Assembly (NCBI GenBank): GCA_018817405.1
Contig: JAHITZ010000032.1
Location: 1-63,491, forward strand
Origin: Nanobdellota archaeon
Lineage (GTDB): Archaea > Nanobdellota > Nanobdellia > Pacearchaeales > GW2011-AR1
Length of the DNA stretch: 63,491 bases
Reading direction: 5' to 3'
The notes beneath the pieces are model-generated. The model had not been told where the DNA came from and did no database searches. It worked only from the letters and a program-made list of their open reading frames with translations. A program made the position numbers and the translations under genes. Shown piece by piece: positions 5,737 through 49,074 of this stretch. The first letter of the stretch is position 1. Every line of letters starts with the position of its first letter.

Positions 5737-6675
5737 ATGTATATCGAAAAAAGAAAGTATTATGGCAAGACAAAGTATTGGCTTTCTCACTCATTCAGGG
5801 AAGGAGGCAAGATACATAAAATAAGAAAATTACTGGGCGTAGATTTAACTAAGGATAAATTAGAAGAAAGAAAAGAAAGGGCTGAGAACCTCATCTTAGA
5901 AGAAATTAATAAGTACAAAATAATAAAAGATCCCCTCCATGATAAGATATCCAAAGAAGAAATTGAATTTATTAAAAGGTTGCAAGCAGAAGCAAATCTT
6001 AAAGTAATTCACCTATCTGAAAAGCAGTGGAAAACTTTCTCTGAAATTTTTAGTTATAATACTAATGCGATAGAAGGCAGCGAATTAAGTAAAAAAGAAA
6101 CCAAGGAAGTCATAGAAAAAGGAGTTTGGCCAGTTGAAAAGTCTAAAGAAGATATCGCAGAAGCGTTAGGTGTGAACGAAGCCATAAAACTTATTAGAAA
6201 AACAAAAGAACATATTTCTTTAGACTTAATTAAGCAAATCCATTATATTGTTTTCAAAAACTCTAAAGATTTTGCAGGAGAATTGAGAAAGTTAGGACAA
6301 GAAGTAGTTGTTAGAACTGGAACAGGATTTATTGTTCACGAAGGCGCGCCTTCCTCGAGAGTTATTACTTTGCTCAATGAACTAATCAAATGGTATAATA
6401 AACACAAATCAGAATATCCTGGAATTCTGTTGGCTTCTGTCATACACAATCAGTTTGAAAATATACACCCCTTTGCAGATGGCAATGGAAGAGCCGGCAG
6501 AATTTTATTGAATAATATTTTATTAAAAAATAATCTTCCACCAGTCAATATAGATATAAAAAACCAAGCTGAATATTATCAGACTTTGCAATCTTATGAA
6601 AAAGATGGAAACATAAGGCCAACTATAGAACTCATATTAAAAGAGTACAAAAGTCTAAGTAAAATAATAAAATAA
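5737..6675 (+). CDS. fic: Fic-family protein (AMPylase-type), with N-terminal inhibitory motif
   Basis: HPFADGNGRAGR active-site motif; TNAIEG matches the (S/T)xxxE(G/N) inhibitory helix. Confidence 0.85.
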   Translation: MYIEKRKYYGKTKYWLSHSFREGGKIHKIRKLLGVDLTKDKLEERKERAENLILEEINKYKIIKDPLHDKISKEEIEFIKRLQAEANLKVIHLSEKQWKTFSEIFSYNTNAIEGSELSKKETKEVIEKGVWPVEKSKEDIAEALGVNEAIKLIRKTKEHISLDLIKQIHYIVFKNSKDFAGELRKLGQEVVVRTGTGFIVHEGAPSSRVITLLNELIKWYNKHKSEYPGILLASVIHNQFENIHPFADGNGRAGRILLNNILLKNNLPPVNIDIKNQAEYYQTLQSYEKDGNIRPTIELILKEYKSLSKIIK

Positions 6676-6986: not shown

Positions 6987-7322
6987 CTAATCTCCAGAAA
7001 GGGTTCTTTCTAAATTCTTAAAACCTTCTCCTAAATAATAAGCATCTTCATTAGACAAACCAATTATCAGCAGAGACATTCTGTGGTCATCGAAGTTTAA
7101 ATGTCTACAAGCTTTCCAATGACAATAAGCCTCCAGCGGCCTCATTCCAGCATGTAATTTAAATTCTCTCTGTTGCTCTTCTCTTGTCTGAGAGCTATCA
7201 ACCCATCCTAAACTTTCTGCATAATCTATTGCTTCATCTGAAACATAGGGTTCTTCCGCTAACATCCCCTCAAGCATGCTATCCATTATCAAAGAAGGCG
7301 CATCAAATTCACCACATTCCAT
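6987..7322 (-). CDS. Orphan ORF with atypical composition, acidic, 111 aa
   Basis: ORF next to tRNA-Glu; shares LERTLS-D and CxnCR motifs with ORF 30173-30412. Confidence 0.4.
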   Translation of the reverse strand: MECGEFDAPSLIMDSMLEGMLAEEPYVSDEAIDYAESLGWVDSSQTREEQQREFKLHAGMRPLEAYCHWKACRHLNFDDHRMSLLIIGLSNEDAYYLGEGFKNLERTLSGD

Positions 7323-10256: not shown

Positions 10257-10514
10257 ATGGTGCGGGCATTCATAGATATCAGACCAGGAGACACTATTTC
10301 TATCAAGCCAAATAATTTAGAGCTAATGATTTTAAATTCAAATAGCCAAACCCTGAATCTACAAATATCTGGCGGGAGAAAGTTATCAATACCAGAAGGA
10401 GCAAACGCTCATCTCTCAACAGGCATATCACTGCACAACTATGGACACAGGGGCATGGGGAAGGCATATCACATAAGATTAACTTGCACACCAATAATCC
10501 CTTATACAAGATAA
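10257..10514 (+). CDS. Hypothetical small protein
   Basis: 85-aa ORF, no recognisable motif. Confidence 0.3.
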   Translation: MVRAFIDIRPGDTISIKPNNLELMILNSNSQTLNLQISGGRKLSIPEGANAHLSTGISLHNYGHRGMGKAYHIRLTCTPIIPYTR

Positions 10515-10607
10515 CAAGAACCCGCAAGGGAAAAGCAAATAATGTGGGGCTTGGATAAATCACAAGGTTTCGATAACTCTTTTAAACCCAGTTTCCTCAA
10601 CAGACAT

Positions 10608-11864
10608 ATGGCATTTTTCGATTTTTTAAGACGTTCCAGTAAGAAAGAAGAACAAAAACAATTAGAAGAAATAAATCTAAATGAAATTCCTGATTGGATA
10701 GGTTCTAAATCAAATAAGATATTTGAGAATCTAGACTCTGAATTTGAAGAAATAAGAGAGAAAATATCTCAAGAAAAAATAGCTCTCAAACAAAATCTTA
10801 AAAATCTAGAACAAGCAGAACTCAAGAATAAGGATATTCCTGATAGAATGAAGCAGATAATGGAAGGAAACAGGAGAATATATGTCCATAAAATTAATAG
10901 TTTTATAAGAAAAATTAATTTTCCTAGCGACACTGATGAAGCTTTAAACTTCGCAGTTTCTTTTGATTCAGAATTAGATAAGTTTGATAAAAGCATAGGG
11001 AAAAGCCACAACATCCTGGAAGAATTTTTCCCTGAAAAAGCAAATCTTGTCTCAACAAACGTGAAAAATATAGACAAATTAGTCAAAGAGGCAAAATCTA
11101 AAATAAAAAATTCTGAGGTTGAAAAAGTAAACGAACTAAAAAACCATGTTTCTTCAACATTAAATAAAATAAAACAAAAAGAAGAAGGCCATAAAAGGTT
11201 AAAACTGCTTGAAGAAGATTTGAAATTCCATAAGGAAACAATAAACAATAAGGAAAGTAGGTTAGAACAACTCCAACAACAAGAGACATACAAGAAAATA
11301 ATAGAGTTAATGGAAACGAAAGAACAACTAGAACAGAAAATTAAAGAAAACGAATCTAAATTTGTACATTCTTTTTCAGAGATTGAGACAGCCCTTAAAA
11401 AATATGAAAACCTCTCGGAAAATAAACTGGCAAAAAGATATTTGGAAGATTCTTTAAATGCTTTGCTAGGAGATAAGGATTTGGAAATTTTAGGCTTGTT
11501 AGATGCAATAAAAAAAGCAATTGCAAGCGGAGATATCACCTTGAAGGACAAAAAGAAAGATAAGGTGATAAAAGAATTGGACAGCCTAGATAAAGATTAC
11601 ATTGAAAGTTTCTTGCAAACTCACACAAACTCAAATAAAGACCTCTCTGAATTAGATTCTAAAATTAGAAGTTCCAATATCCTCAAAGAGATTGAAAATC
11701 TCAAGGATGAATTAAAACAAGACAACACAAATCTTGAAAAAGACAAGTTCAAGATAGGTAAGATGAAAAAAGAGACAGAGGGGATTGATGTTTCTCAGTT
11801 AATTTCAGGACTTGAAGACAAAATTAGAGAGAATACAGGAGAGGAAGTTAAAATCAACAATTAA
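10608..11864 (+). CDS. Coiled-coil protein (K/E-rich)
   Basis: Start placed at internal Met MAFFDFL; long heptad-like K/E/L/N-rich sequence. Confidence 0.6.
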   Translation: MAFFDFLRRSSKKEEQKQLEEINLNEIPDWIGSKSNKIFENLDSEFEEIREKISQEKIALKQNLKNLEQAELKNKDIPDRMKQIMEGNRRIYVHKINSFIRKINFPSDTDEALNFAVSFDSELDKFDKSIGKSHNILEEFFPEKANLVSTNVKNIDKLVKEAKSKIKNSEVEKVNELKNHVSSTLNKIKQKEEGHKRLKLLEEDLKFHKETINNKESRLEQLQQQETYKKIIELMETKEQLEQKIKENESKFVHSFSEIETALKKYENLSENKLAKRYLEDSLNALLGDKDLEILGLLDAIKKAIASGDITLKDKKKDKVIKELDSLDKDYIESFLQTHTNSNKDLSELDSKIRSSNILKEIENLKDELKQDNTNLEKDKFKIGKMKKETEGIDVSQLISGLEDKIRENTGEEVKINN

Positions 11865-12463
11865 CGAGCACTATCTGCTTGTTTCTCTGCCTCGTTCTTT
11901 TTTGAAAGAGCATAACTTTCCATATTCCCCTCTGAAGCTTTGATTATCTCCTCAGCAAGTGATTGTACCATCTTCTTTTTCTTTCCAAAACATCTTTGAT
12001 ATGCTCCCTGAACCATCCATCTCAACGCAAGGTCAACCCTTCTTGTAGGAGAAGTGTCAATTGCCTGTGGATATCTTGCTCCACCATGTTCAATAACAGT
12101 GATTTCGTCTCTTGGCGAACAATTTTCAATCGCAGTCACAAGAATCTGGACAGCATTTTTCTTTGTTCTTTGTTCAATAAGATTCATTACCTCTATCACA
12201 GTAACCATATTTTTGTTATACTTTCCAGAAGCCCAGCTTGTAATTATTTTGTGCCTCTTTCCGACATGTCCTGGTGTTGCAATCCTATTTGCAAGTCTCT
12301 CTAAGATATTCACTCTTGCCTTGCCAAACTTCCCAACATTCCTCCCCTGCGACTTCAAAAGCAACTTTGGTTCAACATTTATATAAGGCTTCAAAGCAGG
12401 ATCCTTTATCTCAATGTCAGAGACATCAAATATGTCGAAGAGTTTTATTTCTTGTTCAGCCAT
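11861..12463 (-). CDS. rps7: 30S ribosomal protein S7
   Basis: Start at MAEQEIKLFD, preceded by GGAGG; conserved S7 core (RVNILERLANRI, ENCSPR). Confidence 0.9.
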   Translation of the reverse strand: MAEQEIKLFDIFDVSDIEIKDPALKPYINVEPKLLLKSQGRNVGKFGKARVNILERLANRIATPGHVGKRHKIITSWASGKYNKNMVTVIEVMNLIEQRTKKNAVQILVTAIENCSPRDEITVIEHGGARYPQAIDTSPTRRVDLALRWMVQGAYQRCFGKKKKMVQSLAEEIIKASEGNMESYALSKKNEAEKQADSAR

Positions 12464-12683
12464 CCGCAATCCTCCTTGTTTTTTTATATTTTTTCCCAGC
12501 AGGAGTAAGCTTAACGCGCGGAACAGCAGAGTCCACAAACACTTGTGCATAACCTGTTGTTGTTAATTCTCCCTGAACCCTATCATACACATGGGCATCT
12601 AAACCACTAAAATCTACATGTCCCCCATTGTCATAAGCTTTTGATACAATTTCTTGTGTCGCGTCACTTAATTCTCTTGTCAT
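12456..12683 (-). CDS. Orphan ORF (75 aa) inside the rps12-rps7 operon
   Basis: TAA-A-ATG junction with the upstream ORF; overlaps the rps7 ATG by 8 nt. Confidence 0.5.
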   Translation of the reverse strand: MTRELSDATQEIVSKAYDNGGHVDFSGLDAHVYDRVQGELTTTGYAQVFVDSAVPRVKLTPAGKKYKKTRRIADG

Positions 12684-12684
12684 T

Positions 12685-13026
12685 TTATCTCATCTCCTCC
12701 AACTTAATCCCACATTCTTCAAACATTTTTAAAACTCTCTCAACTCTCACATCTGGATTTCCCAAACTTTTAGTATTAACACAAAGCACACATCTCTCTG
12801 CTTTACCATCCAAACCAATAGGCTCTCTTGTATGAAAATGTGGTGGATTTTCTTCTAATTCTAAACCATTATCTTTACGCAAACTATAATGCTGTACACC
12901 ATTCAAATATTTTCCTCTGGCAACTTTTCCTGATCTATTCAATCTTTCAAACAAATCCTGCATGCCCTCGCTATCTGCAAGAAAACAATATACAGCATCT
13001 TTAATCGTTTGAGTTCCAGTTGTCAT
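12685..13026 (-). CDS. Orphan ORF (113 aa from the internal ATG) inside the rps12-rps7 operon
   Basis: TAA-A-ATG junctions on both sides; contains PPHFHTREP and CVLC. Confidence 0.5.
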   Translation of the reverse strand: MTTGTQTIKDAVYCFLADSEGMQDLFERLNRSGKVARGKYLNGVQHYSLRKDNGLELEENPPHFHTREPIGLDGKAERCVLCVNTKSLGNPDVRVERVLKMFEECGIKLEEMR

Positions 13027-13027
13027 T

Positions 13028-13378
13028 TTACGCCGGGACCTCTGCCGCTCGGCTTTGAGATTGTGCAGATTCCACAATTCTTTTCAGTTTAGCTGAAAAG
13101 CTCAAAGAGGATCTATCCTCAGGACAATAAACATTGGCTGTGTACTGAGTGCCAACTCGCACCCCCTCATTGCCATAACCAGACACTGATTCAGATAATA
13201 AAAAATACTCTCCCCCCAATGTCAGTGCAGTTACTCTGGGAGTTGTCTCCAAATCGGTTGAGTGAACAATTTTCCTATGTTTAGTCCCACGAATAAATTC
13301 CCCAACGCCCGCTACAACTGCCTCAATCATTAGACCATCATAACTTCTCACATTAACTCCCTCAAATTGATTCCACAT
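13028..13378 (-). CDS. Orphan ORF (116 aa from the internal ATG) inside the rps12-rps7 operon
   Basis: TAG-A-ATG junction with the rps12 stop. Confidence 0.5.
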   Translation of the reverse strand: MWNQFEGVNVRSYDGLMIEAVVAGVGEFIRGTKHRKIVHSTDLETTPRVTALTLGGEYFLLSESVSGYGNEGVRVGTQYTANVYCPEDRSSLSFSAKLKRIVESAQSQSRAAEVPA

Positions 13379-13840: not shown

Positions 13841-14059
13841 TTAACGAACCTTCCCTTCATTCTTTCTAATCGCTCTTAAAATCCAAACAACAATCCAAGT
13901 GACAATTATCAGCCCAAGAGCAATAGGGCCATAAAAAGAGATGTAAAGAGCCATCCCCAGATTCACCCCAAATACGAACGCTCCATAAATCAAGAAACCA
14001 AAAAACAATAAAACTACAATCACACTAATAATCCAGCCAACTTTAATCTCATTTTCCAT
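13841..14059 (-). CDS. Small two-TM membrane protein
   Basis: 72 aa, host-like composition; TAA-A-ATG junction with the nusA stop. Confidence 0.5.
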
Positions 14060-17800: not shown

Positions 17801-18297
17801 AGTCTTTCTCTTATTTCTATAGGATTCAGCCTTTTTTTGTCCACGAAAAAACTGGTTGGTTTTTCAAGTTTCACTCTGTTAATATTCTCGTTACAGTGAG
17901 GGCATTTCTTAGCATCTCTTGCTTTTTTAGCTTTTTTTGCAGGACTCAAGCCTTTTTGTTTTTCTTTGCTCAAAGCTAATTTTCCGCAATAAGGACAAAA
18001 ACTCCTTAAGCAAAGTTCTATTAGAGGAATGTATTTAATATGAAGGATAGGTCTTGCCAATTCAATGCTTCCAGAATGACCAGGACATTCCTTAACACGT
18101 TTCCCGCAAGTTCTGCACCTAACTCCAGGGTCAATTGCCCCTAACCTTAAGTCCATCAGCCCGCCGTCAACAGGAAACCCGTCAATATCATAAAGTTCTG
18201 GAGTCACAACCTTTACAGCGCTAAGTTTTTTAATCTGTTCAGCACTAAGCAAACAAAATCTCACAGACCTTATTTGCTTTCTTGAATGTTTAATCAT
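14866..18297 (-). CDS. rpoA: DNA-directed RNA polymerase largest subunit, A' and A'' parts in one ORF
   Basis: 1143 aa; Zn motif CRTCGKRVKECPGHSG, active site NADFDGDEMN, and A''-type trigger-loop region RTFHMAGVA..TLGLPRLIEILDA in the same frame. Confidence 0.9.
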   Translation of the reverse strand: MIKHSRKQIRSVRFCLLSAEQIKKLSAVKVVTPELYDIDGFPVDGGLMDLRLGAIDPGVRCRTCGKRVKECPGHSGSIELARPILHIKYIPLIELCLRSFCPYCGKLALSKEKQKGLSPAKKAKKARDAKKCPHCNENINRVKLEKPTSFFVDKKRLNPIEIRERLVNIPDEELRRIGINTHSARPERAVISLLLVPSVTVRPSITLDTGERSEDDLTHKLSDIIRANQRLWENLNAGAPEVIIEDLWDLLQYHVTTFFDNNVTRIPPARHRSGQPLKTITERIKGKEGRIRHNLAGKRVNYSARSVISPDPYLRINEIGVPQQIAEVITVAESVTSTNIEEIKNLIRNGTAYPGVNNVIRIDGRRKRITEDLKEEIVAEIQPGYKVERHLRDGDIVLFNRHPTLHKQGLMAHYVKVLPGRTFRLNPAAAAPYNADFDGDEMNIHSPQNEEALSEAKVLLDINNNIISSKNNTNLVGTIADAVTGAYLLGKDTVEKSEADQLLFSLNIINNVKKKEVSGIDVFSQVIPKGSNISIPGTINGSNTFGAEDGEMVKLIDKEFGREIAVDSISKAFTLGTVYLSRKGYTLSLHDLDVPEKVKEITKEIIAKAEKKTLEVIEDYEADRLESMPGKTMEETRETKIMQILNSVRTDVSDVVKSHFPAEGSINKMIKSGSGGSMLNVTQMGCCVGQQSLWNKRISFGYSDRTLAFFKKNDLKPEARGFIKSSFLKGLKPSEFFFGAITGRDALMDTALRTPKSGYLYRRLVSALQDLKVEYDGTVRDASENIVQFSYGEDGKDVAKLHLKDDKISPGEAVGVITAQSFGEASTQMVLRTFHMAGVAQMQVTLGLPRLIEILDARKQPSTPMMEIYLDRENNNEKNARVIAEKIKEVKLKEILSEINIDFGNNKIEIELDSKALKGAHIGPQKVADKLTDKKFKATLSGMRIVIALPEHGFKEMYKLKEKLKEIVVSGIKGVPQVVVSKKDREYVILTSGSNLMETLEVKGINRDKVFSNDIHDVKEILGIEAARQTIINEIKNVIETQGLDINKRHLTLVADAMTSSGTVKGVTRMGIITDKASILARATFETPDKQFVNATIKGSEDELKSVIENILLNQPIPVGTGLPGLLVKVTGPLVRKDEGKKS

Positions 18298-18563
18298 TTT
18301 TTCCTCTTCTCTAATTTATTTTTCAAATCATCAAAGTCTTTTTTTACTTTAACAAAAGACATCTTAACTTCATGCTTAAATTCTTTTGTTTCATCACTAA
18401 TCGCCCAGACCTTAAATATCAAAGTCAGAAACAAGACTATAACAATGCTAAGTTCTGTGGGGCTGTTGCCAAATATTCTCCAAATTACCAATATAACTGC
18501 AATTATCAATGTAATCCAAAATAATATATTAAGTATTTGTCTTTTGTTCATTTTATTGATCAT
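18294..18563 (-). CDS. Small membrane protein encoded between rpoB and rpoA
   Basis: 89 aa, two TM helices plus a K/E-rich tail; overlaps the rpoB end by 11 nt and the rpoA start by 4 nt. Confidence 0.5.
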   Translation of the reverse strand: MINKMNKRQILNILFWITLIIAVILVIWRIFGNSPTELSIVIVLFLTLIFKVWAISDETKEFKHEVKMSFVKVKKDFDDLKNKLEKRKK

Positions 18564-22141: not shown

Positions 22142-22239
22142 TGGTCCCGACGGGATTTGAACCCGCGACACCTAGGTTTCTTTTACTTTTAGTTCAATAC
22201 TAAAAGCCTAGTGCTCTAACCAGGCTGAGCTACGGAACC
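22142..22239 (-). tRNA. tRNA-Lys (UUU) with an intron of about 22 nt
   Basis: GGTTCCG/CGGGACC acceptor; GCTC-AGCCTGGTTA-GAGC D arm; anticodon stem CTAGG/CCTAG restored after removing about 22 nt; T loop TTCAAAT. Confidence 0.8.
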
Positions 22240-22288: not shown

Positions 22289-22657
22289 CTAACCTTTCGC
22301 CCTAGTTTCAGCAGGGATCGTCACATGAGATTTATCATAAAAACGTATTTCAACAGAAAAATCTAATCCATCAATAGAAGGGGTTCTCACGCTTCTTGGA
22401 GTTTCTCCGAGCTCAACAAGCCCCCCCCACAGTATTTGATCATTTGGAGTGTAAGCTGCTGCCCCATGTTGCCTGCTTGACACCATATGGCTAATTATTC
22501 CTCTTTCAACTTTTTCAAATGAAGTTGCTAAATCATGCCCTCTTGCAGAAACAGGCAGTTCCAAACATTCTGCAACTATATAATTGGGAGGGTCTCCTTC
22601 ACCAACATCAGATCTGTACGAAACAACCCTAAACACTTCAGTCACTCTACTAACCAT
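22289..22657 (-). CDS. Orphan ORF with atypical composition, 122 aa (weak HicB/UPF0150-like N-terminal pattern)
   Basis: YIVAECLELPVSARGHDLATSFEKVERGI loosely resembles the HicB-type Y.A..PELPG....G.T.EEA pattern. Confidence 0.45.
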   Translation of the reverse strand: MVSRVTEVFRVVSYRSDVGEGDPPNYIVAECLELPVSARGHDLATSFEKVERGIISHMVSSRQHGAAAYTPNDQILWGGLVELGETPRSVRTPSIDGLDFSVEIRFYDKSHVTIPAETRAKG

Positions 22658-29339: not shown

Positions 29340-30140
29340 TCACCCACTCAAATTCCCATTTCTCGTGAAAACCTTTTTGCTACTCTCCTCCTTGCCCAAC
29401 CCATGCAACTTCTTGTAACTGCACCAATCACAAAACGCCTTCCCACAAGCAGACCACTCTGTCGTTGATTCAATCTTCTTAATCAATTCCAAAGTCTCTT
29501 CCTTCAATTTATCCAACTGCTCCTGCGTTCTCTTTGAATGAATCTTCTTATCAAACGCAAGAAAATGCCAAACAAGTTTTACCTTTATCTCCTCGTCAAA
29601 CAACGCCTGTAATCCAAGTTGATAAAAAGCCAACTGCCTGTCCTTATCAATCTCTTCTTGCGACTTCAGGAATGAATTTGTTTTATAATCATGAACCTCA
29701 TACTCTCCTTTTTCATTCAAAACAATTCTATCAATATATCCAACTATCGCGTAGTTTTCGTCAAGAGGAAACAAAATCTTCCTCTCAGTTTCAATTGTAT
29801 TTTCAGAAAAAGGCTTGTTGCTTTGAAAGTAATCAACTAAAAACTTTACACCCTTGTTAAAATAATCTCCTTCCTTATCTCCGACAGGAATCCTTACACA
29901 CAGAGTATACTGTTTATGCCAATTTTCTGCAAAATGTTTTACCAATTCATCGAGCTCAACAGTTTTTCCGCTTTTAATTTCATTATAAAGAAATTCCAAA
30001 CTTTCATGAACCATGCTTCCCAAAAATGCATGAACACTAGACGGCAATTCAGGAAATGTCCTGTCAATGTATTTAATTTTGTAAGCTTCTGGACAATTTT
30101 CATACAGCCAAAGTCTAGAATTTGAATATATCATCACCAT
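29340..30140 (-). CDS. PD-(D/E)XK nuclease, Cas4/RecB-like with C-terminal Cys cluster
   Basis: GYIDRIV...EVHDYKT nuclease motif; N-terminal Cys and C-terminal CGKAFCDWC. Confidence 0.7.
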   Translation of the reverse strand: MVMIYSNSRLWLYENCPEAYKIKYIDRTFPELPSSVHAFLGSMVHESLEFLYNEIKSGKTVELDELVKHFAENWHKQYTLCVRIPVGDKEGDYFNKGVKFLVDYFQSNKPFSENTIETERKILFPLDENYAIVGYIDRIVLNEKGEYEVHDYKTNSFLKSQEEIDKDRQLAFYQLGLQALFDEEIKVKLVWHFLAFDKKIHSKRTQEQLDKLKEETLELIKKIESTTEWSACGKAFCDWCSYKKLHGLGKEESSKKVFTRNGNLSG

Positions 30141-30172: not shown

Positions 30173-30412
30173 TTAGGCTTTGTTTTTCATATCTTTAATG
30201 AATTTAGCCACCCTTCTCCTTTTTTCAGGCCATCCCTTTTCGTCTTCTGATAATGTCCTCTCGAGCAAAATAAGAAATCGAACCTCTTCACGACAAGGTT
30301 CACAGATTTGAGTAACATGTCTAGCCAAATCCGGCGCCGTTTCAGGACTAAATCCAGTTAAAGCTTGTAATTCACGGTCAGAGTCATAGTCTCCCCTTTC
30401 ATAATCGTTCAT
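30173..30412 (-). CDS. Orphan ORF (79 aa from ATG; frame stays open 43 codons further upstream, to the repeat edge)
   Basis: No stop between 30413 and 30541 in this frame; shares motifs with ORF 6987-7322. Confidence 0.4.
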   Translation of the reverse strand: MNDYERGDYDSDRELQALTGFSPETAPDLARHVTQICEPCREEVRFLILLERTLSEDEKGWPEKRRRVAKFIKDMKNKA

Positions 30413-37141: not shown

Positions 37142-37375
37142 ATGATTAAAAAAAGAATAATTAACGATCCAGTTAGGTATGTTAAATTAAAAGGGATTGG
37201 CTTAAGGATTGATTATTACTTCAATAGGAAAGGTTGCAATAATAAAGAAAGAGGTCATCTCGCTATTGAAGATGGAAAAGTAGTATGTGAAAGACCAGCT
37301 TCAGCTTTAAACGTCTTTATATCTAATGGTTCTCCTTTCTTAAACATCTCTGGTGCTCTTATTCTTCCAATCTAA
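37142..37375 (+). CDS. Hypothetical small protein
   Basis: 77-aa ORF, no motif recognised. Confidence 0.3.
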   Translation: MIKKRIINDPVRYVKLKGIGLRIDYYFNRKGCNNKERGHLAIEDGKVVCERPASALNVFISNGSPFLNISGALILPI

Positions 37376-37397
37376 CTGCACATTTTCCATTGGTATT

Positions 37398-38093
37398 TCA
37401 CTTAACGCCCTTTTCAAAATCATTAAGGTTTTTTTCTAAAGCTTTGACTGCCTCGGCCAAAATATCTTTTGCTGGCATGTTGCCATAGGATTCTATAATA
37501 AAAAGTAATTCGTTGGAATCAGAGAGTGCATTTTTATCAATGTCTTCAATTTGTTTTATTTCTGCTTCGTTTAGGTCACATAACCATTTAGAGCCTTTTT
37601 TTTCTGGTTTGATAAGGCCTTTGGATTTTTCAATTATTTTATCTATCTGCGGAGATGATTTTACTTCAAGAAGATGATGGTAGTAGCATAAACCTGGGAC
37701 GTGTTTTGCGTGTTCTGTTCCTTTTCCTAATCTGGCTGTAGCCATTAATTCTAATTTGTGATTTTCTCTGAGAAGTGTTAAAGGAATTTTTTTGTAGATG
37801 ACTTCTGCAGGACCTTTCAAATCTTCTGAATAAACAGTGCAAGGACCTTTCTTTGACAGTTTGAAATCTATTTTTGTTTTTGCTGTCATGGATTTTTCTG
37901 TCTTCAATGGAATCAGGCCGAACCTGTTTGCAAGAATTTCGTCGTAAAGAGCAGAATCATTTTTGTAAATTTCAACTTCGTCAATTGCAAGGGTTGGGAT
38001 TTCAGAGACGCTTCTGCGAATAGCATTTGCTAAAGGCTCGTTTGCTTCTATTCTCAAGACCAATTTTTCCTTTGTGTTTTGTATTGTTTGCAT
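37398..38093 (-). CDS. rpoD: RNA polymerase subunit D (Rpb3-like)
   Basis: 231 aa; ANAIRRSV.SEIPTLAIDEVEI..N.S.L.DEILA.R.GLIPL; canonical position after rps11. Confidence 0.85.
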   Translation of the reverse strand: MQTIQNTKEKLVLRIEANEPLANAIRRSVSEIPTLAIDEVEIYKNDSALYDEILANRFGLIPLKTEKSMTAKTKIDFKLSKKGPCTVYSEDLKGPAEVIYKKIPLTLLRENHKLELMATARLGKGTEHAKHVPGLCYYHHLLEVKSSPQIDKIIEKSKGLIKPEKKGSKWLCDLNEAEIKQIEDIDKNALSDSNELLFIIESYGNMPAKDILAEAVKALEKNLNDFEKGVK

Positions 38094-38130
38094 TTTTATT
38101 TAACGAATTTTTAGTTTTAAAGGTTTGCTA

Positions 38131-38829
38131 TTATACTCTCCTCCCCCTTCTTCCGCCTTTTTTCTTTGGGCCTCCCCGAGGAACTTTTGTTGTGTCTAGT
38201 ATGCTTATGATGTCAAAGCCTGCCTTGCCAAGACTTTTTACTGCAGAATTTGTACCAGGCCCGTGTCCAAATCGTGTTTTTCCTTTCATTCTTACATACA
38301 GTCTTGTAAAACCTAAATCGCGAGCTCGCTCTGCAGCCCTTTTAGCGACGAACATTGCAATTGTTGGATTTGCTTTTAATCTCGAGTGTTTTGTAATCAT
38401 TCCTCCTGAAACTTTTGAGATTGTACTGCCTGAAAGGTCTGTTATGTGGACTCTTGTGTTGTTTGAGGAGCTTGAGATGTAAGCGATTCCTGTTTTGTCT
38501 TCTTTCCTTTTTGTTTTGGATTCTGTTTTTTGTGGTGTAACTTTTTCTTCTTTAGGTTCTTTTTTCTTCTTATCAACTATTTCTGCAGCAACTTCCTCGG
38601 CAACTTCTTCAGCTACTTTCTCCGCAGCTTCTTCTTTTTTCTTCTTATCAACTATTTCTGCAGCAACTTCCTCGGCAACTTCTTCAGCTACTTTCTCCGC
38701 AGCTTCTTCTTTTTTCTTCTTAGTTTTGGTCTCAAGAGAGGTTGGAATCTTTTTTTCTATTTCTTCTTCTACAATTTCCTTGATTTCTTCCTTTACTTTC
38801 TTCTCAACTTTTTTCTTTTCTTCTGGCAT
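38131..38829 (-). CDS. rps11: 30S ribosomal protein S11 with an N-terminal K/E/A-rich extension of about 100 aa
   Basis: C-terminal 130 aa are a canonical S11 (GIAYISSSSNNTRVHITD...GRRGRRV). Confidence 0.9.
   Translation of the reverse strand: MPEEKKKVEKKVKEEIKEIVEEEIEKKIPTSLETKTKKKKEEAAEKVAEEVAEEVAAEIVDKKKKEEAAEKVAEEVAEEVAAEIVDKKKKEPKEEKVTPQKTESKTKRKEDKTGIAYISSSSNNTRVHITDLSGSTISKVSGGMITKHSRLKANPTIAMFVAKRAAERARDLGFTRLYVRMKGKTRFGHGPGTNSAVKSLGKAGFDIISILDTTKVPRGGPKKKGGRRGRRV
38566..38715. repeat. Perfect 2 x 75-nt tandem duplication inside the rps11 5' extension
   Basis: 38566-38640 and 38641-38715 read identical; encodes KKKKEEAAEKVAEEVAEEVAAEIVD twice. Confidence 0.85.
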
Positions 38830-39119
38830 TATGCTGCTTCCTCTAGTTTACTTACAGAAACGTAAAAATTATGTTCTCTTAGATTTGGTAAAACTGGATC
38901 TTCATTAAATCTTTGAGTTGCTTCGTTGGGAGTAGAGTTGAAAAATACAATTGCTTCTGTCTTATCACGAGTCGAATTATAAGGCATTGCCCAATCATAT
39001 CTTTGTCCAGGGATTAATTGACCGATTGATAAGTTCTGTGCGCTTCTTAATCCTCTTCTTTCTACCACAGACCTAAAAGCATTGTCCACCATAATTAGAT
39101 TTGGATTAAAGGTTGCCAT
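38829..39119 (-). CDS. Orphan ORF (96 aa) between rps4 and rps11
   Basis: TAATG stop/start overlaps on both sides; shares motifs with ORF 39855-40187. Confidence 0.5.
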   Translation of the reverse strand: MATFNPNLIMVDNAFRSVVERRGLRSAQNLSIGQLIPGQRYDWAMPYNSTRDKTEAIVFFNSTPNEATQRFNEDPVLPNLREHNFYVSVSKLEEAA

Positions 39120-39727
39120 TATTCGGTTGCCTCCTTTGATTCTTCCTTTGGGGCTTCTTCTTGAGTTGGTTCTGCTGGCTTAGCTGGTTCGGCCGGAGCT
39201 TCAGCTTGTGGCTCTTGAGCTAGTTGTTCTGCCTGCGGTTCAGCAGCTGGAGCTTCTTCTTTCTTTGGCTTTGGCTTCTTTGCTTTCTTTTTTAGTGTGA
39301 TCTTGTTTTCTTCTGAAAGAGGTACAAGATAGCTTGGAGAGTTTACGACCTTTTTGTTAATTAGAATTTTTTTATGAACTACCATCTGCCGTGCTTGCCT
39401 TGTAGTGTCTGCTAACTTCTTTTGTGCAACCACTGTTGGCAATCTTCTTTTTAAGATATCTTCTACCTGCAAGTCTAAAACATCTGCAATGGTGTTTGTG
39501 TTTAAGCCGAGAGCTTTTAATTTTCTAAACAAAATTTCTTGTTCTTCAAGTGGTTTTTTAGCAAGGGCCTTTGCTCTTCCTCTGCAATATTCAACTTTTG
39601 CCTGTGTTTTCCACAGTTCTTTTTTATTTTTCAAAGCGTATTTCTTCTTTAACTGCTCTTCTTCCTTGATTCTCTCTTTTTCAAAAGGTTTCATTGGTTT
39701 TTTGTAGAGGTTTTTTTTGCGGATCAT
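39119..39727 (-). CDS. rps4: 30S ribosomal protein S4 with a Pro/Ala/Glu-rich C-terminal tail
   Basis: S4 core (S4 RNA-binding domain region RRLPTVV.....A.T..QARQ.V.H..I); about 55-aa low-complexity tail. Confidence 0.9.
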   Translation of the reverse strand: MIRKKNLYKKPMKPFEKERIKEEEQLKKKYALKNKKELWKTQAKVEYCRGRAKALAKKPLEEQEILFRKLKALGLNTNTIADVLDLQVEDILKRRLPTVVAQKKLADTTRQARQMVVHKKILINKKVVNSPSYLVPLSEENKITLKKKAKKPKPKKEEAPAAEPQAEQLAQEPQAEAPAEPAKPAEPTQEEAPKEESKEATE

Positions 39728-39854
39728 TTTATGTTTTGGTTAGTAAATTTAAATTGTTATAATCTGTATTGAAAGAACGATTATCTAAAAAAATAAATGG
39801 TTTGGATAAATAATATTTGACTTTTATTTTATTTGATTTTGTCATTTTAACTTA

Positions 39855-40187
39855 TTACACTCCTCTCCTCAATTCTGGAAACATTTGTTCAAGAGATTTT
39901 AACTCTTGGTATGGTGGTATGAGTAACTTCAAATAATGCTGTGGGCGGGCTCCGAGAGCTACATCTCGCACCATACTTCGAAACGTTCCTCTTGCGTTGT
40001 TATAACGAGGCAGTGCTTCTACAAATAAACTACTTGATGCTAGCTGTTCGGCCTGCATCATATTAGCCTCAAAAACAGAGAGATGAAAATTATGATGTAC
40101 CAAGTTAGAACTTATTGGCTCCCCTACAAACTCGCAGTTTACTGCTGTTACATTTCCCCTTTCTTCTGTTGTCATTATTGCTACCAT
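39855..40187 (-). CDS. Orphan ORF (110 aa from the internal ATG) between rps13 and rps4
   Basis: TAA-A-ATG junction with the rps13 stop; motif sharing with 38829-39119 and 40700-40966. Confidence 0.5.
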   Translation of the reverse strand: MVAIMTTEERGNVTAVNCEFVGEPISSNLVHHNFHLSVFEANMMQAEQLASSSLFVEALPRYNNARGTFRSMVRDVALGARPQHYLKLLIPPYQELKSLEQMFPELRRGV

Positions 40188-40188
40188 T

Positions 40189-40698
40189 TTATCCTTTCTT
40201 CCCCTTACTTGCTTTTTTCTGAACACTAACTGCCTTGCCTTTCTTTCTAAAGTGCGAGCGAGTTCTTTGGCCGCGAACTGGCAGGCCTGCTGTGTGACGG
40301 ATTCCTTTATAGGACTTGATTTTTTTCATTCGGCGGATGTCAAAATCTCTTTTCATTTCCAGGTCTGCTCCAATACAATGCTCTGTTTCCCCTGTTTCTG
40401 GGTCTTTTCTTCTGTTTTTTTGAAAATCTTTAATGTCTGGATTTTTCAAAAATTCCTCGATTTTTTGAATCTCTTCTTTAGAGAGTTCTAAAACTTTTTT
40501 TGTTTTTTGGATTTTTAGTTTTATGCAAGTGGCATTTGCAACTGTCCAGCCAACTCCTTTTATTCTTGTCAGACCTGCGAGAATTCTTTTTGAGCCAGGG
40601 ATGTCATAGCCTGCAATTCTGATTAACATTTCTTCAAGGTCTTCTTTTTCAAAATGTTTTTTTGGTTTTTCAGTTTTAGGTTGGTTTGGGGCTGCCAT
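40189..40698 (-). CDS. rps13: 30S ribosomal protein S13
   Basis: Start at MAAPNQ; IAGYDIPG.K....LT.I.GVG, KGIRH..GLPVRGQRT. Confidence 0.9.
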   Translation of the reverse strand: MAAPNQPKTEKPKKHFEKEDLEEMLIRIAGYDIPGSKRILAGLTRIKGVGWTVANATCIKLKIQKTKKVLELSKEEIQKIEEFLKNPDIKDFQKNRRKDPETGETEHCIGADLEMKRDFDIRRMKKIKSYKGIRHTAGLPVRGQRTRSHFRKKGKAVSVQKKASKGKKG

Positions 40699-40699
40699 T

Positions 40700-40966
40700 T
40701 TATTCTGTTTGCCCTCTTGCTTCATTGTAAGCTTGTCGTGCAGCGTTATAGCGGTTTCCTAATTCTAGGGCTGTTCCTTCTGAAACGCCTGCTGCTTTTT
40801 GTCTAACAATATAGGATTTTAATTCGTTTAGGTGGCTTGAAGCGGAGGCAAGAGACAGTGTTGCGCGCTCAGAGGCACCTAGCTTAGCTGAATACGTTGC
40901 ATTAGCACAAAGATTTTCAACTTCGGCGGCCATTTGGTCTGCTTTTCTTAATTTGCCTTTTCCCAT
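40700..40966 (-). CDS. Orphan ORF (88 aa, predicted helical) upstream of rps13
   Basis: TAA-A-ATG junction with rps13; A/S/L/N/E-rich. Confidence 0.45.
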   Translation of the reverse strand: MGKGKLRKADQMAAEVENLCANATYSAKLGASERATLSLASASSHLNELKSYIVRQKAAGVSEGTALELGNRYNAARQAYNEARGQTE

Positions 40967-40972
40967 TTTATG

Positions 40973-41251
40973 CTACACCCCCCTCTCTTCGATATACGAT
41001 TCAACAGCCTGAATAGAATTATCTGCTTGTAAGTAAAAGGCCTCAATATCTGCATTAGACGTTAAACCCTCGCTTTCTTCTCCGTATACTTCTAAAATGG
41101 CCAGTTGCCATCCTGCACCATCCACAAACATAGTTGCATTACAAAATCTTCCTTCATTAGCATGTTGTCTGGCAAGTCTACAAGTTCTTGCCATACCCTC
41201 TGCGGCGTCTCTTGCGTTTGCTATTAATATTTTATTCCTTTCTTCTCCCAT
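40973..41251 (-). CDS. Orphan ORF (92 aa)
   Basis: Starts 2 nt after the DUF655 stop; C-NAT motif shared with 40700-40966. Confidence 0.45.
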   Translation of the reverse strand: MGEERNKILIANARDAAEGMARTCRLARQHANEGRFCNATMFVDGAGWQLAILEVYGEESEGLTSNADIEAFYLQADNSIQAVESYIEERGV

Positions 41252-41253
41252 CT

Positions 41254-41793
41254 TTACCTCACAAACAGATTAAACCTCTGTCTTACTGTTAACTCTTCTA
41301 TAAATCTCTTTTCAACTGCTTTCTTTGGGTCGGGTATGGATTTCACTCTAGCCTTGATGTCTTCAAAGCTTGCGAATGGTTTTTCTTTTCTTGCTTCCAT
41401 GATCTCCCTTGTGTGTTTTTTACCGAAGCCAGGCAAGAGTTCAAGTTGATGGAGGCGCGTATTCATGGCCTGAGCATTATTGAAGAATTCCACAAAGGTT
41501 TTCTCCTGCTCCCCAACCACTGCCTCAACAAACTCCTGCAGTTGGATCTTTGCAGTCTCTGTAAGCTTCTCTTTATGAAGCCTACCTGCGATGTAGTATA
41601 TCTTATCTCTTTTCTCCGGGCCTATATAAACTTTTTCCTTTGGTGATAATAACACGCCCCTACGTGGAATTAGTTCTAAAAGAGAAAATGTCTTGATGCC
41701 AATGGCTTGAGCTATCGGGTTCGTGTGCTTTTCCATTGGATAACCGTAAGGGAGGAAATCCAGTATGATTGCGTGTTCTTCTTTCTCTGTCAT
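41254..41793 (-). CDS. DUF655 (COG1491) HhH-containing nucleic-acid-binding protein
   Basis: 179 aa; ILDFLPYGYP...LHQLELLPGFGKK; canonical partner of rpl21e-rpoF. Confidence 0.7.
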   Translation of the reverse strand: MTEKEEHAIILDFLPYGYPMEKHTNPIAQAIGIKTFSLLELIPRRGVLLSPKEKVYIGPEKRDKIYYIAGRLHKEKLTETAKIQLQEFVEAVVGEQEKTFVEFFNNAQAMNTRLHQLELLPGFGKKHTREIMEARKEKPFASFEDIKARVKSIPDPKKAVEKRFIEELTVRQRFNLFVR

Positions 41794-41801
41794 TTTTACC
41801 T

Positions 41802-42101
41802 TTAGTATTTGTTAACAATTTCCAGTATTGCATTTGTTTCCTCTTCGGTTAATGAAGTATCTATAAAAATTTTATTAACATCTTCTGCATCTTTCGGCAG
41901 GAAGTCAATAAGTTTTACAATGTGTTCTTCTTTTATTTTCATATTTCCTAAAGATTTAATTTCTTCTTTTAGTTTAAGAGCTTTATCTTTAGAAAGTTTT
42001 GTGAACTTTTTCAAGTAGGCTTTTATTTCCTGCCTTTCTTCTAGTGGTTTCACTATGTCTTGCACTTCTGCTAGTGTTAGTGGGTTTTTGGAGTGGATCA
42101 T
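41802..42101 (-). CDS. rpoF: RNA polymerase subunit F (Rpb4-like)
   Basis: 99 aa helical K/E-rich protein in the conserved position between rpl21e and DUF655. Confidence 0.65.
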   Translation of the reverse strand: MIHSKNPLTLAEVQDIVKPLEERQEIKAYLKKFTKLSKDKALKLKEEIKSLGNMKIKEEHIVKLIDFLPKDAEDVNKIFIDTSLTEEETNAILEIVNKY

Positions 42102-42102
42102 T

Positions 42103-42471
42103 TTATTCTTGTACCTCTATTAATTCTTCACCAAGTAATCTTGAGAGGTCTGCTCTTACTCTTTCAACTTTGTCTTGTTCCCCAATTAAACTTGCTTCTG
42201 GATGATATTGTTCCCCTCCACAAAAAACTCCTGTAACCCCTCCTATAGAATGTAGCACACTTATGCATGATTCTATATAATCTGGAATGGTATGTATCCC
42301 ATATCCCCTCTCGAGAGCTTCGGTTCCAACTCTCTTTTTCTCTATGAAAAATATACTCCAAATATCTTTACCTCTTAATTCATATTTTTTTGTTACTATC
42401 CCTTCTCCTGTTTGTGTTTCTGTTCCTTGAACTGGAATCCTCGGGAACGTTTCTCCAGGTTCTACTGACAT
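42103..42471 (-). CDS. Orphan ORF (122 aa) between rpl21e and rpoF
   Basis: ATG embedded in the last codons of rpl21e; TAA-A-ATG junction with rpoF. Confidence 0.45.
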   Translation of the reverse strand: MSVEPGETFPRIPVQGTETQTGEGIVTKKYELRGKDIWSIFFIEKKRVGTEALERGYGIHTIPDYIESCISVLHSIGGVTGVFCGGEQYHPEASLIGEQDKVERVRADLSRLLGEELIEVQE

Positions 42472-42740
42472 TTTATTTTTCCTCCTGCGTTTTCTATCCT
42501 CTTTAAATGAATTGGTCTAATTAAATACTTTTTTGTTTTGTTTATATCTTTGATTTCTACGTAGTAGGCTGAGCCTCGTTTTTCTATGACTTTGCCCGTT
42601 CTGCCTTGTAGGCGATTAGAATATGCGAATGGTTGGCTTAGTTCCTGAACTACTGCGACAGAGTCGCCTGGCTGGAACTTCTGGAAAAATCTCGTAAATG
42701 AGAACTTTCCTTTTTGTTTTTGTTTCTTGTGCTTTAACAT
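42462..42740 (-). CDS. rpl21e: 50S ribosomal protein L21e
   Basis: 92 aa; F..GD.V.........G.P...F.G.TG.V....G.AY.V pattern. Confidence 0.85.
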   Translation of the reverse strand: MLKHKKQKQKGKFSFTRFFQKFQPGDSVAVVQELSQPFAYSNRLQGRTGKVIEKRGSAYYVEIKDINKTKKYLIRPIHLKRIENAGGKIKCQ

Positions 42741-42892
42741 AGAATTTAGTGAGAGAATTAGTTTTTAAGCTTTGGGGTTTATGAATTTTTAGAATATTTT
42801 ATAGCATTAACAATTATTCAATTAGTTCAGACTTTGCGACCAATGAATTGTTAGAAATAAGTATACGGAAAAGGTTTTGTGTCCTTTGCGTG

Positions 42893-43357: not shown

Positions 43358-43582
43358 TTCGCCTCTTTACTTAAGATTAGTAGATTTGGAGAGGAAGGTA
43401 TATAAATTTATCTTCTGTTGATTATAGACAGAACATATGAAAACCAGCACATTTGTTTTATCAGAAGGACACAACAAATAATATCTAAACAGTATGGCTC
43501 TAGACAATAATATTATCACAATCTATTTTGGAAGGTTGGAGGGGGTGGGTAAATAATTAATCAATTTCGATGTTGTAACAAA

Positions 43583-43728
43583 TAAATAAATCGCTAAATT
43601 CGCTATCCTCCTGGCAAGACCATTGGGTATTTGCCGCGAATTTCCAAGACGCGATTTCTAATTTTCTTTTTGAAAAAACGCGGCAAGACTGCGGGGTATC
43701 AAACCCCAAAAAGAAAATGAATTAATAA
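43583..43728 (+). repeat. Hairpin-rich repeat family B, copy 1 (long form)
   Basis: Near-identical to 48929-49074; nested stems AAATCGC/GCGATTT, AATTCGC/GCGAATT, ATTTTCTTTTTG/CAAAAAGAAAAT, GGGG/CCCC; GGCAAGAC occurs twice. Confidence 0.8.
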
Positions 43729-45700: not shown

Positions 45701-47650
<1,950 letters not shown>

Positions 47651-47654
<4 letters not shown>

Positions 47655-47929
47655 TCTCTATCCTCCACCCTCGCAAGAACATCCTTGAAATCAACTATTA
47701 AAAGTTTTTCGCTGTTGAGTTCAAATTCCTCATTGCTGTAGCCGCCGTAAATTACTTTGTCTCCTTTTTTCAGCGGGATGAGGGAGCCATTTTTTAGTGT
47801 GCCAACTTCCTGCACAATGCCTTCTTTTTTTTCTTCAGAAGATTTTGGAAGATAGATTCCTGACTTGGTTCTTTCTTCTGCTTTAACTGGCTTTAAAATA
47901 ATTCTTTCTCCAAGTGGTATGAGTTTCAT
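47651..47929 (-). CDS. groS: Co-chaperonin GroES
   Basis: 92 aa; KLIPLGERIILKP.....KT.SGIYLP. Confidence 0.9.
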
Positions 47930-48843: not shown

Positions 48844-48928
48844 AAAAAGATTTATTTTTTTAATTTTTTACTTATTGGATTTTTATAGTTTTGGGTAGGG
48901 GGAGAGTTATTAAAGAAGAGGATTCTTA

Positions 48929-49074
48929 AATAAAGAAATCGTTAAAATTAACTATCCCCATGGCAAGACACTTGGGTATTTGCCGCGAATTTCCAAGACG
49001 CGATTTCTAATTTTCTTTTTGGAAAAATTCGGCAAGACCGCGGTGTATCAAACCCCAAAAAGAAAATTATAATT
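48929..49074 (+). repeat. Hairpin-rich repeat family B, copy 2 (long form)
   Basis: Aligns with 43583-43728 by eye. Confidence 0.8.

Follow-up and report, generated by a model that had tools for sequence, protein, structure and literature searches.

What are the two small open reading frames (ORFs), G and H, that flank the ribosomal protein S4 gene (rps4) of a Nanobdellota archaeon (Pacearchaeales, GW2011-AR1), and how did they come to lie there? In this work we have analysed contig JAHITZ010000032.1 of assembly GCA_018817405.1, an AT-rich stretch (about 36–37% GC) of 63,491 nucleotides (nt) that we call the window. Our results indicate that G and H are probably lineage-specific, protein-coding orphans inserted in the junctions of the S13-S4-S11-RpoD operon of one DPANN population, and that they form part of a larger set of such orphans. 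The nearest relatives of the host population are metagenome-assembled genomes (MAGs) of Woese- and Pacearchaeota. A preliminary description of this DNA had seen in G and H a pair of circularly permuted paralogues, a possibility that is examined below together with other explanations.

The comparison with relatives is what points to insertion. On the minus strand of the window, the gene order is L21e, an orphan, Rpo4, DUF655, two orphans, S13, H, a 127-nt spacer, S4, G, S11 and RpoD, and every named gene has a match in Pfam. Inserts occupy four of the six junctions of this operon, with five orphans and a 38-codon ORF. Their absence elsewhere could be assessed for one operon, L21e-Rpo4-DUF655-S13-S4-S11-RpoD, which was compared in nine relatives: three Woese-/Pacearchaeota MAGs reached through S13 (54–59% identity) and six JGI metagenome contigs reached through S4 (56–65%). 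In all nine the operon is compact, its genes abut or overlap at all of the approximately 36 junctions, and no ORF is inserted; 25 of these junctions are of the four types that bear inserts in the window. Since the relatives have no intergenic DNA at these sites, the DNA had to be inserted, and de novo birth of the orphans from a pre-existing spacer is excluded. As to whether homologues of G and H flank rps4 in other genomes too, S13 and S4, as well as S4 and S11, abut in the nine relatives.

Both ORFs appear to be singletons. When searched against 5.8 billion protein clusters, G and H each matched only itself, and an exhaustive phmmer search with H against 1.84 billion representatives returned H alone and did not retrieve G. 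Neither G nor H has a match in Pfam, PHROGs, PADLOC, NCBIfam or PDB sequences; this includes known ribosomal protein families (Pfam, NCBIfam), known toxin–antitoxin or defence families (PADLOC, Pfam) and the homing-endonuclease domains HNH, GIY-YIG, LAGLIDADG and PD-(D/E)XK. Ten other orphans of the window are likewise singletons at 90% identity clustering, and for the other orphans no family match reached a curated cutoff or significance in Pfam, PHROG, PADLOC, NCBIfam or PDB sequences. The sub-threshold matches were to DUF7438 (E=0.003) for the 92-amino-acid (aa) orphan that follows DUF655 and to Arch_fla_DE (E=0.0012) for the orphan after EF-2, and the 122-aa orphan between L21e and Rpo4 gave a non-significant HNH match (E=0.24). 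Viral contigs of IMG/VR contained no relatives of the six orphans searched (G, H and four others), tblastn of the orphans against the relatives' loci found nothing, and the remainder of the window, compared with the orphan DNA in every frame by tblastx and blastn, likewise gave no match. An Rfam scan of the window found two tRNAs only, none of them within the inserts. Independent assemblies that carry the DNA at 100% or 99.96% identity, at least three in number (Logan SRR6514274, Logan SRR27458548 and GCA_018812805.1), rule out an assembly artefact, and the other operons were likewise recovered in GCA_018825405.1.

G and H are two of at least 11 mutually unrelated orphan ORFs (75–122 aa) located in three universal operons of the window (Table 1). 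The pair that the preliminary description placed around rps4 is real, and its coordinates and the TAATG overlaps of G agree with our ORF calls and our reading of the junctions; the wider set of inserted orphans had been missed. Eight further orphans (at 12456-13378, 40700-41251, 42103-42471 and 47313-47654) are separated from their neighbours by spacers of 0–6 nt or by short overlaps. Pairwise tests and tblastx found no significant similarity among the orphans save for one short block shared by G and H, which was also the only match among orphans in tblastx. No orphan is in frame with the gene that precedes it; readthrough or frameshift fusions were considered and set aside, as the layout is accounted for by standard coupling junctions.

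The soluble orphans share a characteristic composition. They are arginine-rich and low in isoleucine, with an isoelectric point (pI) of mostly 4.5–6.4. Their lysine content is 1–7%, versus 8–19% in native soluble genes, and their K/(K+R) ratio is 0.12–0.50, versus 0.57–0.94 in the natives; G (pI 5.7) and H (pI 6.4), with 2% lysine, thus differ from S4, S13 and S11, with 19% lysine and a pI of about 10. Their synonymous codon usage follows that of the host (r=0.89). GC at the third codon position (GC3) is low, as in native genes, and GC content falls from the first to the second to the third position (GC1>GC2>GC3), again as in native genes. The in-frame codon likelihood of the orphans is 0.15–0.32 nats per codon (G 0.218, H 0.160), compared with 0.12–0.35 for natives, and their E/A/G-rich composition is unlike a random translation of 36%-GC DNA. 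From these features the orphans look like true coding sequences long resident in an AT-rich background; they resemble neither de novo ORFs nor genes newly acquired from a GC-rich donor. The relatives have lysine-poor small ORFs of their own (K 0–6%) at other places, for instance right after RpoD in L006, the locus of one relative, and lysine-poor orphans may be widespread in the clade, at differing sites. The RNA polymerase/str operon also contains two small predicted membrane proteins as inserts (18294-18551 and 13841-14059, minus strand), of which one separates rpoB from rpoA and the other NusA from S12; unlike the soluble orphans, they are Lys/Ile-rich or hydrophobic. Another of the orphans splits a GroES/GroEL pair (45701-47929, minus strand) that is of bacterial type although the genome is archaeal.

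How could such inserts be translated? Shine-Dalgarno (SD)-like matches, defined as at least 5 nt of AGGAGGTGATC at a spacing of 4–14 nt, precede 8 of the 10 operon-internal orphans, compared with 9% of background windows, and at operon-internal starts, orphan or native, the motif lies within the 3΄ end of the upstream ORF; G, for example, has AGGAGG 10 nt upstream of its ATG. The junctions are of the types ATAAAATG (TAA-A-ATG), TAATG or ATGA. TAATG stop/start overlaps join G to S4 upstream and to S11 downstream, and the 3΄ end of G, GAGGAAGCAGCATAATG, is a near copy of the ancestral S4-S11 junction. H starts 1 nt past the S13 stop (GGATAAAATG), with an alternative ATG at 40175, used by gene callers too, that would give 106 aa, and it ends 127 nt before S4. 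Its 3΄ end, GAGGAGAGGAGTGTAA, bears an SD-like motif, and 9 nt later begins the 38-codon ORF, which ends in ACATAAAATG (TAA-A-ATG) exactly at the S4 start. The SD scan found no SD-like motif upstream of S4, and by reading of the sequence a ATTTAAAT box is present about 20–27 nt upstream of its ATG. Either the mini-ORF may bridge the coupling to S4, or the spacer may hold a promoter for a leaderless S4 mRNA.

The resemblance between G and H on which the preliminary description was built consists of two ungapped blocks in swapped order; our recount agrees with its identity counts of 9 of 23 residues for block 1 and 8 of 26 for block 2, and block 1 indeed departs from chance for a single pair. 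Its motif, F..[ED]P[IV]..NL..HNF..SV (9 of 19 residues identical), has an ungapped BLOSUM62 score of 48, versus 24.4 ± 4.0 in 5000 residue shuffles (p=6e-4), and an E value of 3e-4 in a pairwise BLASTP; overall, its pairwise p is about 1e-4 to 6e-4. As a null made of real sequences, 434 segments, each 110 aa long and taken from genes of the window and of the relatives, were compared with G and H, and none of the 868 comparisons reached 48 (maxima of 41 against G and 37 against H). G-H is also the top pair among the 105 pairs of 15 small unknown ORFs (z=4.76), and the motif is unique to the two in six-frame translations of the window and of all fetched loci. With one 2-residue gap, the block grows to about 36 residues at about one-third identity (AI..N...F..P...NL..HNF..SV). 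Because the pair was picked after the fact, a correction for the 105 pairs is due, and it brings the family-wise p to about 0.01–0.06; in an all-versus-all BLAST of the 159 ORFs of the window, G-H has E=0.14, comparable to about eight plainly spurious matches. We therefore regard block 1 as suggestive, not decisive, its significance being borderline to moderate. The similarity is at the protein level and not that of a DNA repeat, as had been noted: 32 of 57 nt are identical, third codon positions agree at 7 of 19, about chance, and codon identity at the matched residues is about what the codon bias of the host would produce. Should the blocks be homologous, these values would mean that the split is old.

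Block 2, by contrast with block 1, is at chance level. It scores 24, and the second-best non-overlapping block of shuffled sequences scores 20.0 ± 2.5 (p=0.085); its DNA identity is 26 of 69 nt (38%), and the R and S that the two ORFs share come from different codon families (AGG versus CGA, TCT versus AGT), which fits chance better than descent. In Smith-Waterman alignments of G with a doubled H, in which block 1 was fixed and the rest of H shuffled, p was 0.55–1.0 under three gap settings; the permuted alignment adds nothing beyond block 1, and so the permutation signal reduces to that block. The swapped order of two blocks is, on its own, a coin flip. Single-sequence AlphaFold2 models of G (pLDDT 46.3, pTM 0.33) and H (pLDDT 56.3, pTM 0.51) have a confidence too low for fold comparison, and in these low-confidence models the orders of predicted secondary structure do not match under permutation. 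A Foldseek search of the H model against the PDB gave no match at E<=0.001, the best one (E=0.014, rmsd 25 Å) belonging to meaningless long-helix alignments. The likeness between G and H appears to be confined to one 19-residue motif, which may be either the remnant of a shared module or chance.

Table 1. Positions of the ORFs, conserved genes and matched blocks discussed in the text (window coordinates unless a relative's locus is named).
Feature	Position	Strand	Basis or remark
L21e	42462-42740	minus	ORF calls and Pfam
122-aa orphan, between L21e and Rpo4	42103-42471	minus	ORF calls; absent in relatives
Rpo4	41802-42101	minus	ORF calls and Pfam
DUF655	41254-41793	minus	ORF calls and Pfam
92-aa orphan, between DUF655 and S13	40973-41251	minus	ORF calls; absent in relatives
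88-aa orphan, between DUF655 and S13	40700-40966	minus	ORF calls; absent in relatives
Ribosomal protein S13, 169-aa form	40189-40698	minus	Pfam; NCBI call also 169 aa
ORF H, 110-aa orphan, between S13 and S4	39855-40187	minus	ORF calls; self match only
Block 1 in H, residues 20-38 (FVGEPISSNLVHHNFHLSV)	40074-40130	minus	BLASTP, shuffles
Block 2 in H, residues 69-91 (FRSMV...LLIP)	39915-39983	minus	chance-level match
38-codon AT-rich ORF (MTKSNKIKVKYYLSKPFIFLDNRSFNTDYNNLNLLTKT), fills H-S4 spacer	39729-39845	minus	sequence read directly; coding-frame score 0.147
Ribosomal protein S4, 202 aa	39119-39727	minus	Pfam S4 domain
ORF G, 96-aa orphan, between S4 and S11	38829-39119	minus	ORF calls; self match only
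Block 2 in G, residues 15-37 (FRSVV...QLIP)	39009-39077	minus	chance-level match
Block 1 in G, residues 71-89 (FNEDPVLPNLREHNFYVSV)	38853-38909	minus	BLASTP, shuffles
Ribosomal protein S11, K/E-rich N-terminal extension	38131-38829	minus	Pfam and repeat scan
RpoD	37398-38093	minus	ORF calls and Pfam
113-aa orphan, between GroES and GroEL	47313-47654	minus	ORF calls; singleton
116-aa orphan, between S12 and S7	13028-13378	minus	ORF calls; independent gene calls agree
113-aa orphan, between S12 and S7	12685-13026	minus	ORF calls; independent gene calls agree
75-aa orphan, between S12 and S7	12456-12683	minus	ORF calls; independent gene calls agree
Orphan near rpoH	22289-22657		ORF calls
Orphan after EF-2	6987-7322		ORF calls
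Lysine-poor small ORF of a relative	L006 8271-8468	plus	
Lysine-poor small ORF of a relative	L006 10303-10701	plus	
Lysine-poor small ORF of a relative	L006 11186-11401	minus	
Lysine-poor small ORF of a relative	L009 2064-2606	minus	

We propose that the orphans, lacking a promoter of their own, would be transcribed along with the operon in which they reside and translated by SD-assisted termination-reinitiation coupling, each insert borrowing the SD of the upstream gene and supplying an SD-like motif and a junction for the next conserved gene. Their products would be accessory passengers and not components of the ribosome. Our best guess is that these passengers may come from unsampled mobile or viral gene pools and that they may have gained expression by residing in highly expressed operons; they would persist because loss between coupled essential genes would demand a near-exact deletion.

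Several other explanations have to be weighed against insertion of lineage-specific orphans. That G and H are circularly permuted paralogues, which arose when an ancestral orphan was duplicated in tandem and then truncated and which now flank S4, would account for the swapped order of the two blocks and for a similar inter-block spacing (33 versus 38 residues in the permuted register), and a match as good as block 1 is uncommon for a single pair. This origin, however, needs both blocks to be homologous, and it is unsupported because block 2 is at chance and the permuted alignment brings no gain; with the mismatch of the low-confidence secondary structures and the failure of H to retrieve G added, we consider it very unlikely. 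A single homologous module without permutation, in which the C-terminal 20–36 or so residues of G would correspond to the N-terminal 20–38 or so of H and the two would be partial paralogues or mosaics of a fast-evolving pool of small genes, is a tentative possibility that we still hold to be somewhat unlikely: the score of block 1, the real-sequence comparisons and the uniqueness of the motif speak for it, but the family-wise correction, the E value across the window and the codon identities do not, and no third member of such a family was found. Operon neighbours generally tend toward functional linkage, and the inserts lie only inside operons for the ribosome, RNA polymerase and chaperonin, with whose subunits they would be co-translated, so that G, H and the other inserts could be new lineage-specific components or regulators of these machines. 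Against this, the orphans are acidic to neutral and poor in lysine, unlike the basic, Lys-rich ribosomal proteins, they are absent from all relatives that have the same machines, and the gain of 11 unrelated new subunits at once in three operons is implausible. We judge this explanation improbable, and a role as a subunit less likely than that of accessory passenger. It is extremely unlikely, finally, that the ORFs are non-functional, being no more than inserted DNA in which stop codons happen to be lacking. The lack of homologues, of a confident fold and of conservation data would fit this idea, but, judged from sequence composition at 36% GC, the chance that a 96-codon frame stays open and exactly fills the gap is about 1e-3 for each insert. 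At least 10 inserts, without exception, have their open frame on the operon strand, and their codon-frame likelihood and positional GC are native-like, with SD-like motifs upstream.

The manner of insertion offers one more alternative, namely an undescribed mobile system whose cassettes, the inserts, would be directed to translationally coupled ATAAAATG/TAATG junctions and would duplicate the junction upon insertion. Most inserts are flanked by copies of one junction motif, and ATAAAATG is about 2-fold over-represented (14 versus 7.0 ± 2.6), with 12 of its 14 copies on the operon strand. The 3΄ end of G mirrors the ancestral S4-S11 junction. Two details suggest, on weak evidence, that inserts may have landed a few codons inside the neighbouring gene and captured its translation signals: the 92-aa orphan opens with five codons (ATGGGAGAAGAAAGG) similar to the ancestral N-terminus of S13 (ATGGCAGAAGAAAAA), and the last codons of G are similar to the C-terminus of the ancestral S4. 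Yet ATAAAATG is also found at native junctions of the window (NrdR-RNR, rpoH-rpoB) and in relatives that have no inserts; it is a general coupling junction and not an insert-specific site. The two flanks of one insert agree at 14.4 of 29 nt, hardly more than flanks taken from different inserts (13.3 of 29 nt, p=0.04), and the 16 of 29 nt shared by the flanks of G are equalled by 20% of unrelated junction pairs. A target-site duplication was rejected as specific evidence, the similarity of the flanks being no better than generic junction similarity. No terminal inverted repeats were found in a repeat scan of 37300-42800 (insert ends were read directly only for the orphan at 42103-42471), and family searches found no transposase or recombinase adjoining any insert, the only integrase being an Xer-like gene that relatives also have. 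Such cassettes are, in our opinion, highly unlikely. A broader proposal, in which one DPANN lineage underwent a burst of precise insertions into coupled junctions of its most conserved operons (for ribosomal proteins, RNA polymerase and chaperonin) through an undescribed junction-targeting cassette or recombination process, and in which G and H are two cassettes that still have one module in common, is a long shot; if true, it would represent a new route by which streamlined genomes gain genes, and the elements would form a new, operon-parasitic class.

Some of our own observations weigh against reading G and H as inserted, protein-coding orphans. Their coding status is deduced from sequence features. 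The strain assemblies are clonal, with 0–2 single nucleotide polymorphisms (SNPs), and so give no power for a ratio of non-synonymous to synonymous substitution (dN/dS) and no signal of purifying selection; the sole SNP in 5.3 kb of GCA_018825405.1 is a non-synonymous E-to-K change at position 47420, in the orphan between GroES and GroEL. The combination of an Arg-rich, Lys-poor composition with host-like GC3 is explained neither by simple recent transfer nor by de novo birth, and a source of the inserted DNA was not found in the window, in the relatives' loci or in viral contigs. Block 1 is strong enough to leave room for a real kinship between G and H. That the orphans are passengers, and that their sites protect them from deletion, is what we infer from the arrangement.

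Are there known systems that resemble these inserts? Phage morons and free-standing homing-endonuclease genes are single extra genes placed precisely between conserved phage neighbours; morons usually carry their own promoter and terminator, and homing endonucleases have HNH, GIY-YIG or LAGLIDADG domains. Like both, the orphans of the window are inserted precisely between neighbours that abut in relatives. Unlike morons and homing-endonuclease genes, they are located in a cellular chromosome and show no nuclease domain beyond the non-significant HNH match already mentioned. Circularly permuted paralogues arise by duplication and truncation; as in such pairs, G and H are neighbouring genes with two blocks in swapped order, but only one of their blocks is above chance and no tandem-duplicate intermediate was found. 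In prokaryotes, 1905 species-specific orphans in operon-like arrangements have been reported (Genome Res 2024, PMC11293555). Those orphans and ours are short, homologue-free and co-directional among conserved genes, and the flanking synteny is kept in sister taxa. In contrast to them, the orphans of the window sit at zero-spacer junctions of S13-S4-S11, S12-S7 and GroES-GroEL, operons as strongly conserved as any known, at a very high density (four of six junctions in one operon), and their birth from existing intergenic DNA is excluded. 'Dark matter islands' of fast-evolving genes have been described in archaeal genomes (Extremophiles 2014, PMC4158269); they share with our orphans a narrow distribution and consist of small uncharacterised archaeal genes, for which an origin in mobile elements or viruses is often assumed. 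The islands are clustered and lie outside core operons, whereas the orphans of the window occur singly, scattered within core operons, and none of the inserts adjoins a hallmark gene of mobile elements. Orphans inserted in ribosomal operons of archaea were not described in the open-access literature that we searched, an absence that does not prove novelty. The orphans join a known general kind, that of species-specific operon orphans and archaeal dark-matter genes; what is unusual here is the zero-spacer sites in universal operons, the density, and the uniform preference for Arg over Lys with host-like codons.

At least 11 singleton genes have been gained, with zero spacer, in operons whose order is otherwise conserved among the related archaea examined. 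This is a clean and compact case of orphan-gene gain in a streamlined symbiont-type genome, with coding and coupling signals, and it raises the questions of how prokaryotic orphans originate where no intergenic DNA existed, how new genes get expressed in promoter-poor genomes, and whether junctions of essential operons serve as deletion-protected refuges. Caution is also advisable when ribosomal-protein synteny blocks are used for phylogeny or quality control of MAGs, as they can hold such inserts. Circular permutation, which would have made an attractive example of protein evolution, is unsupported.

Other features were observed in the operon and elsewhere in the window. For S13, an alternative longer call of 178 aa starts at 40725. 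S4 ends in an acidic, Pro/Ala-rich C-terminal tail of about 40 residues (EAPAAEPQAEQLAQEPQAEAPAEPAKPAEPTQEEAPKEESKEATE; 39119-39270, minus strand) that is specific to this lineage, the S4 proteins of the relatives having 160–189 aa, without the tail, versus 202 aa here. The K/E-rich N-terminal extension of S11 contains a perfect 75-nt tandem duplication (38557-38706, minus strand) that encodes AAEKVAEEVAEEVAAEIVDKKKKEE twice. Between S7 and EF-2, the usual S12-S7-EF2 order is broken on the opposite strand by an 85-aa ORF and by a 440-aa Lys/Glu-rich protein (10257-11864, plus strand) that looks like a coiled coil by eye and has no Pfam match. About 90–140 nt of two other strain assemblies (L019 and L020) match 48928-49067 and 43580-43672 with about 90% identity, as a repeat dispersed over two intergenic regions would; each window copy was matched to the strain sequence and not to the other copy. 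A 98-nt tRNA at 22142-22239 (minus strand), between the orphan near rpoH and rpoH itself, probably contains an intron, since Rfam finds it and ARAGORN misses it. Finally, the window encodes a DisA-like diadenylate cyclase (786-1850), a Fic/DOC protein (5737-6675) and a PD-(D/E)XK (Cas4-like) nuclease (29340-30140), the last preceded by a small orphan at 30173-30412.

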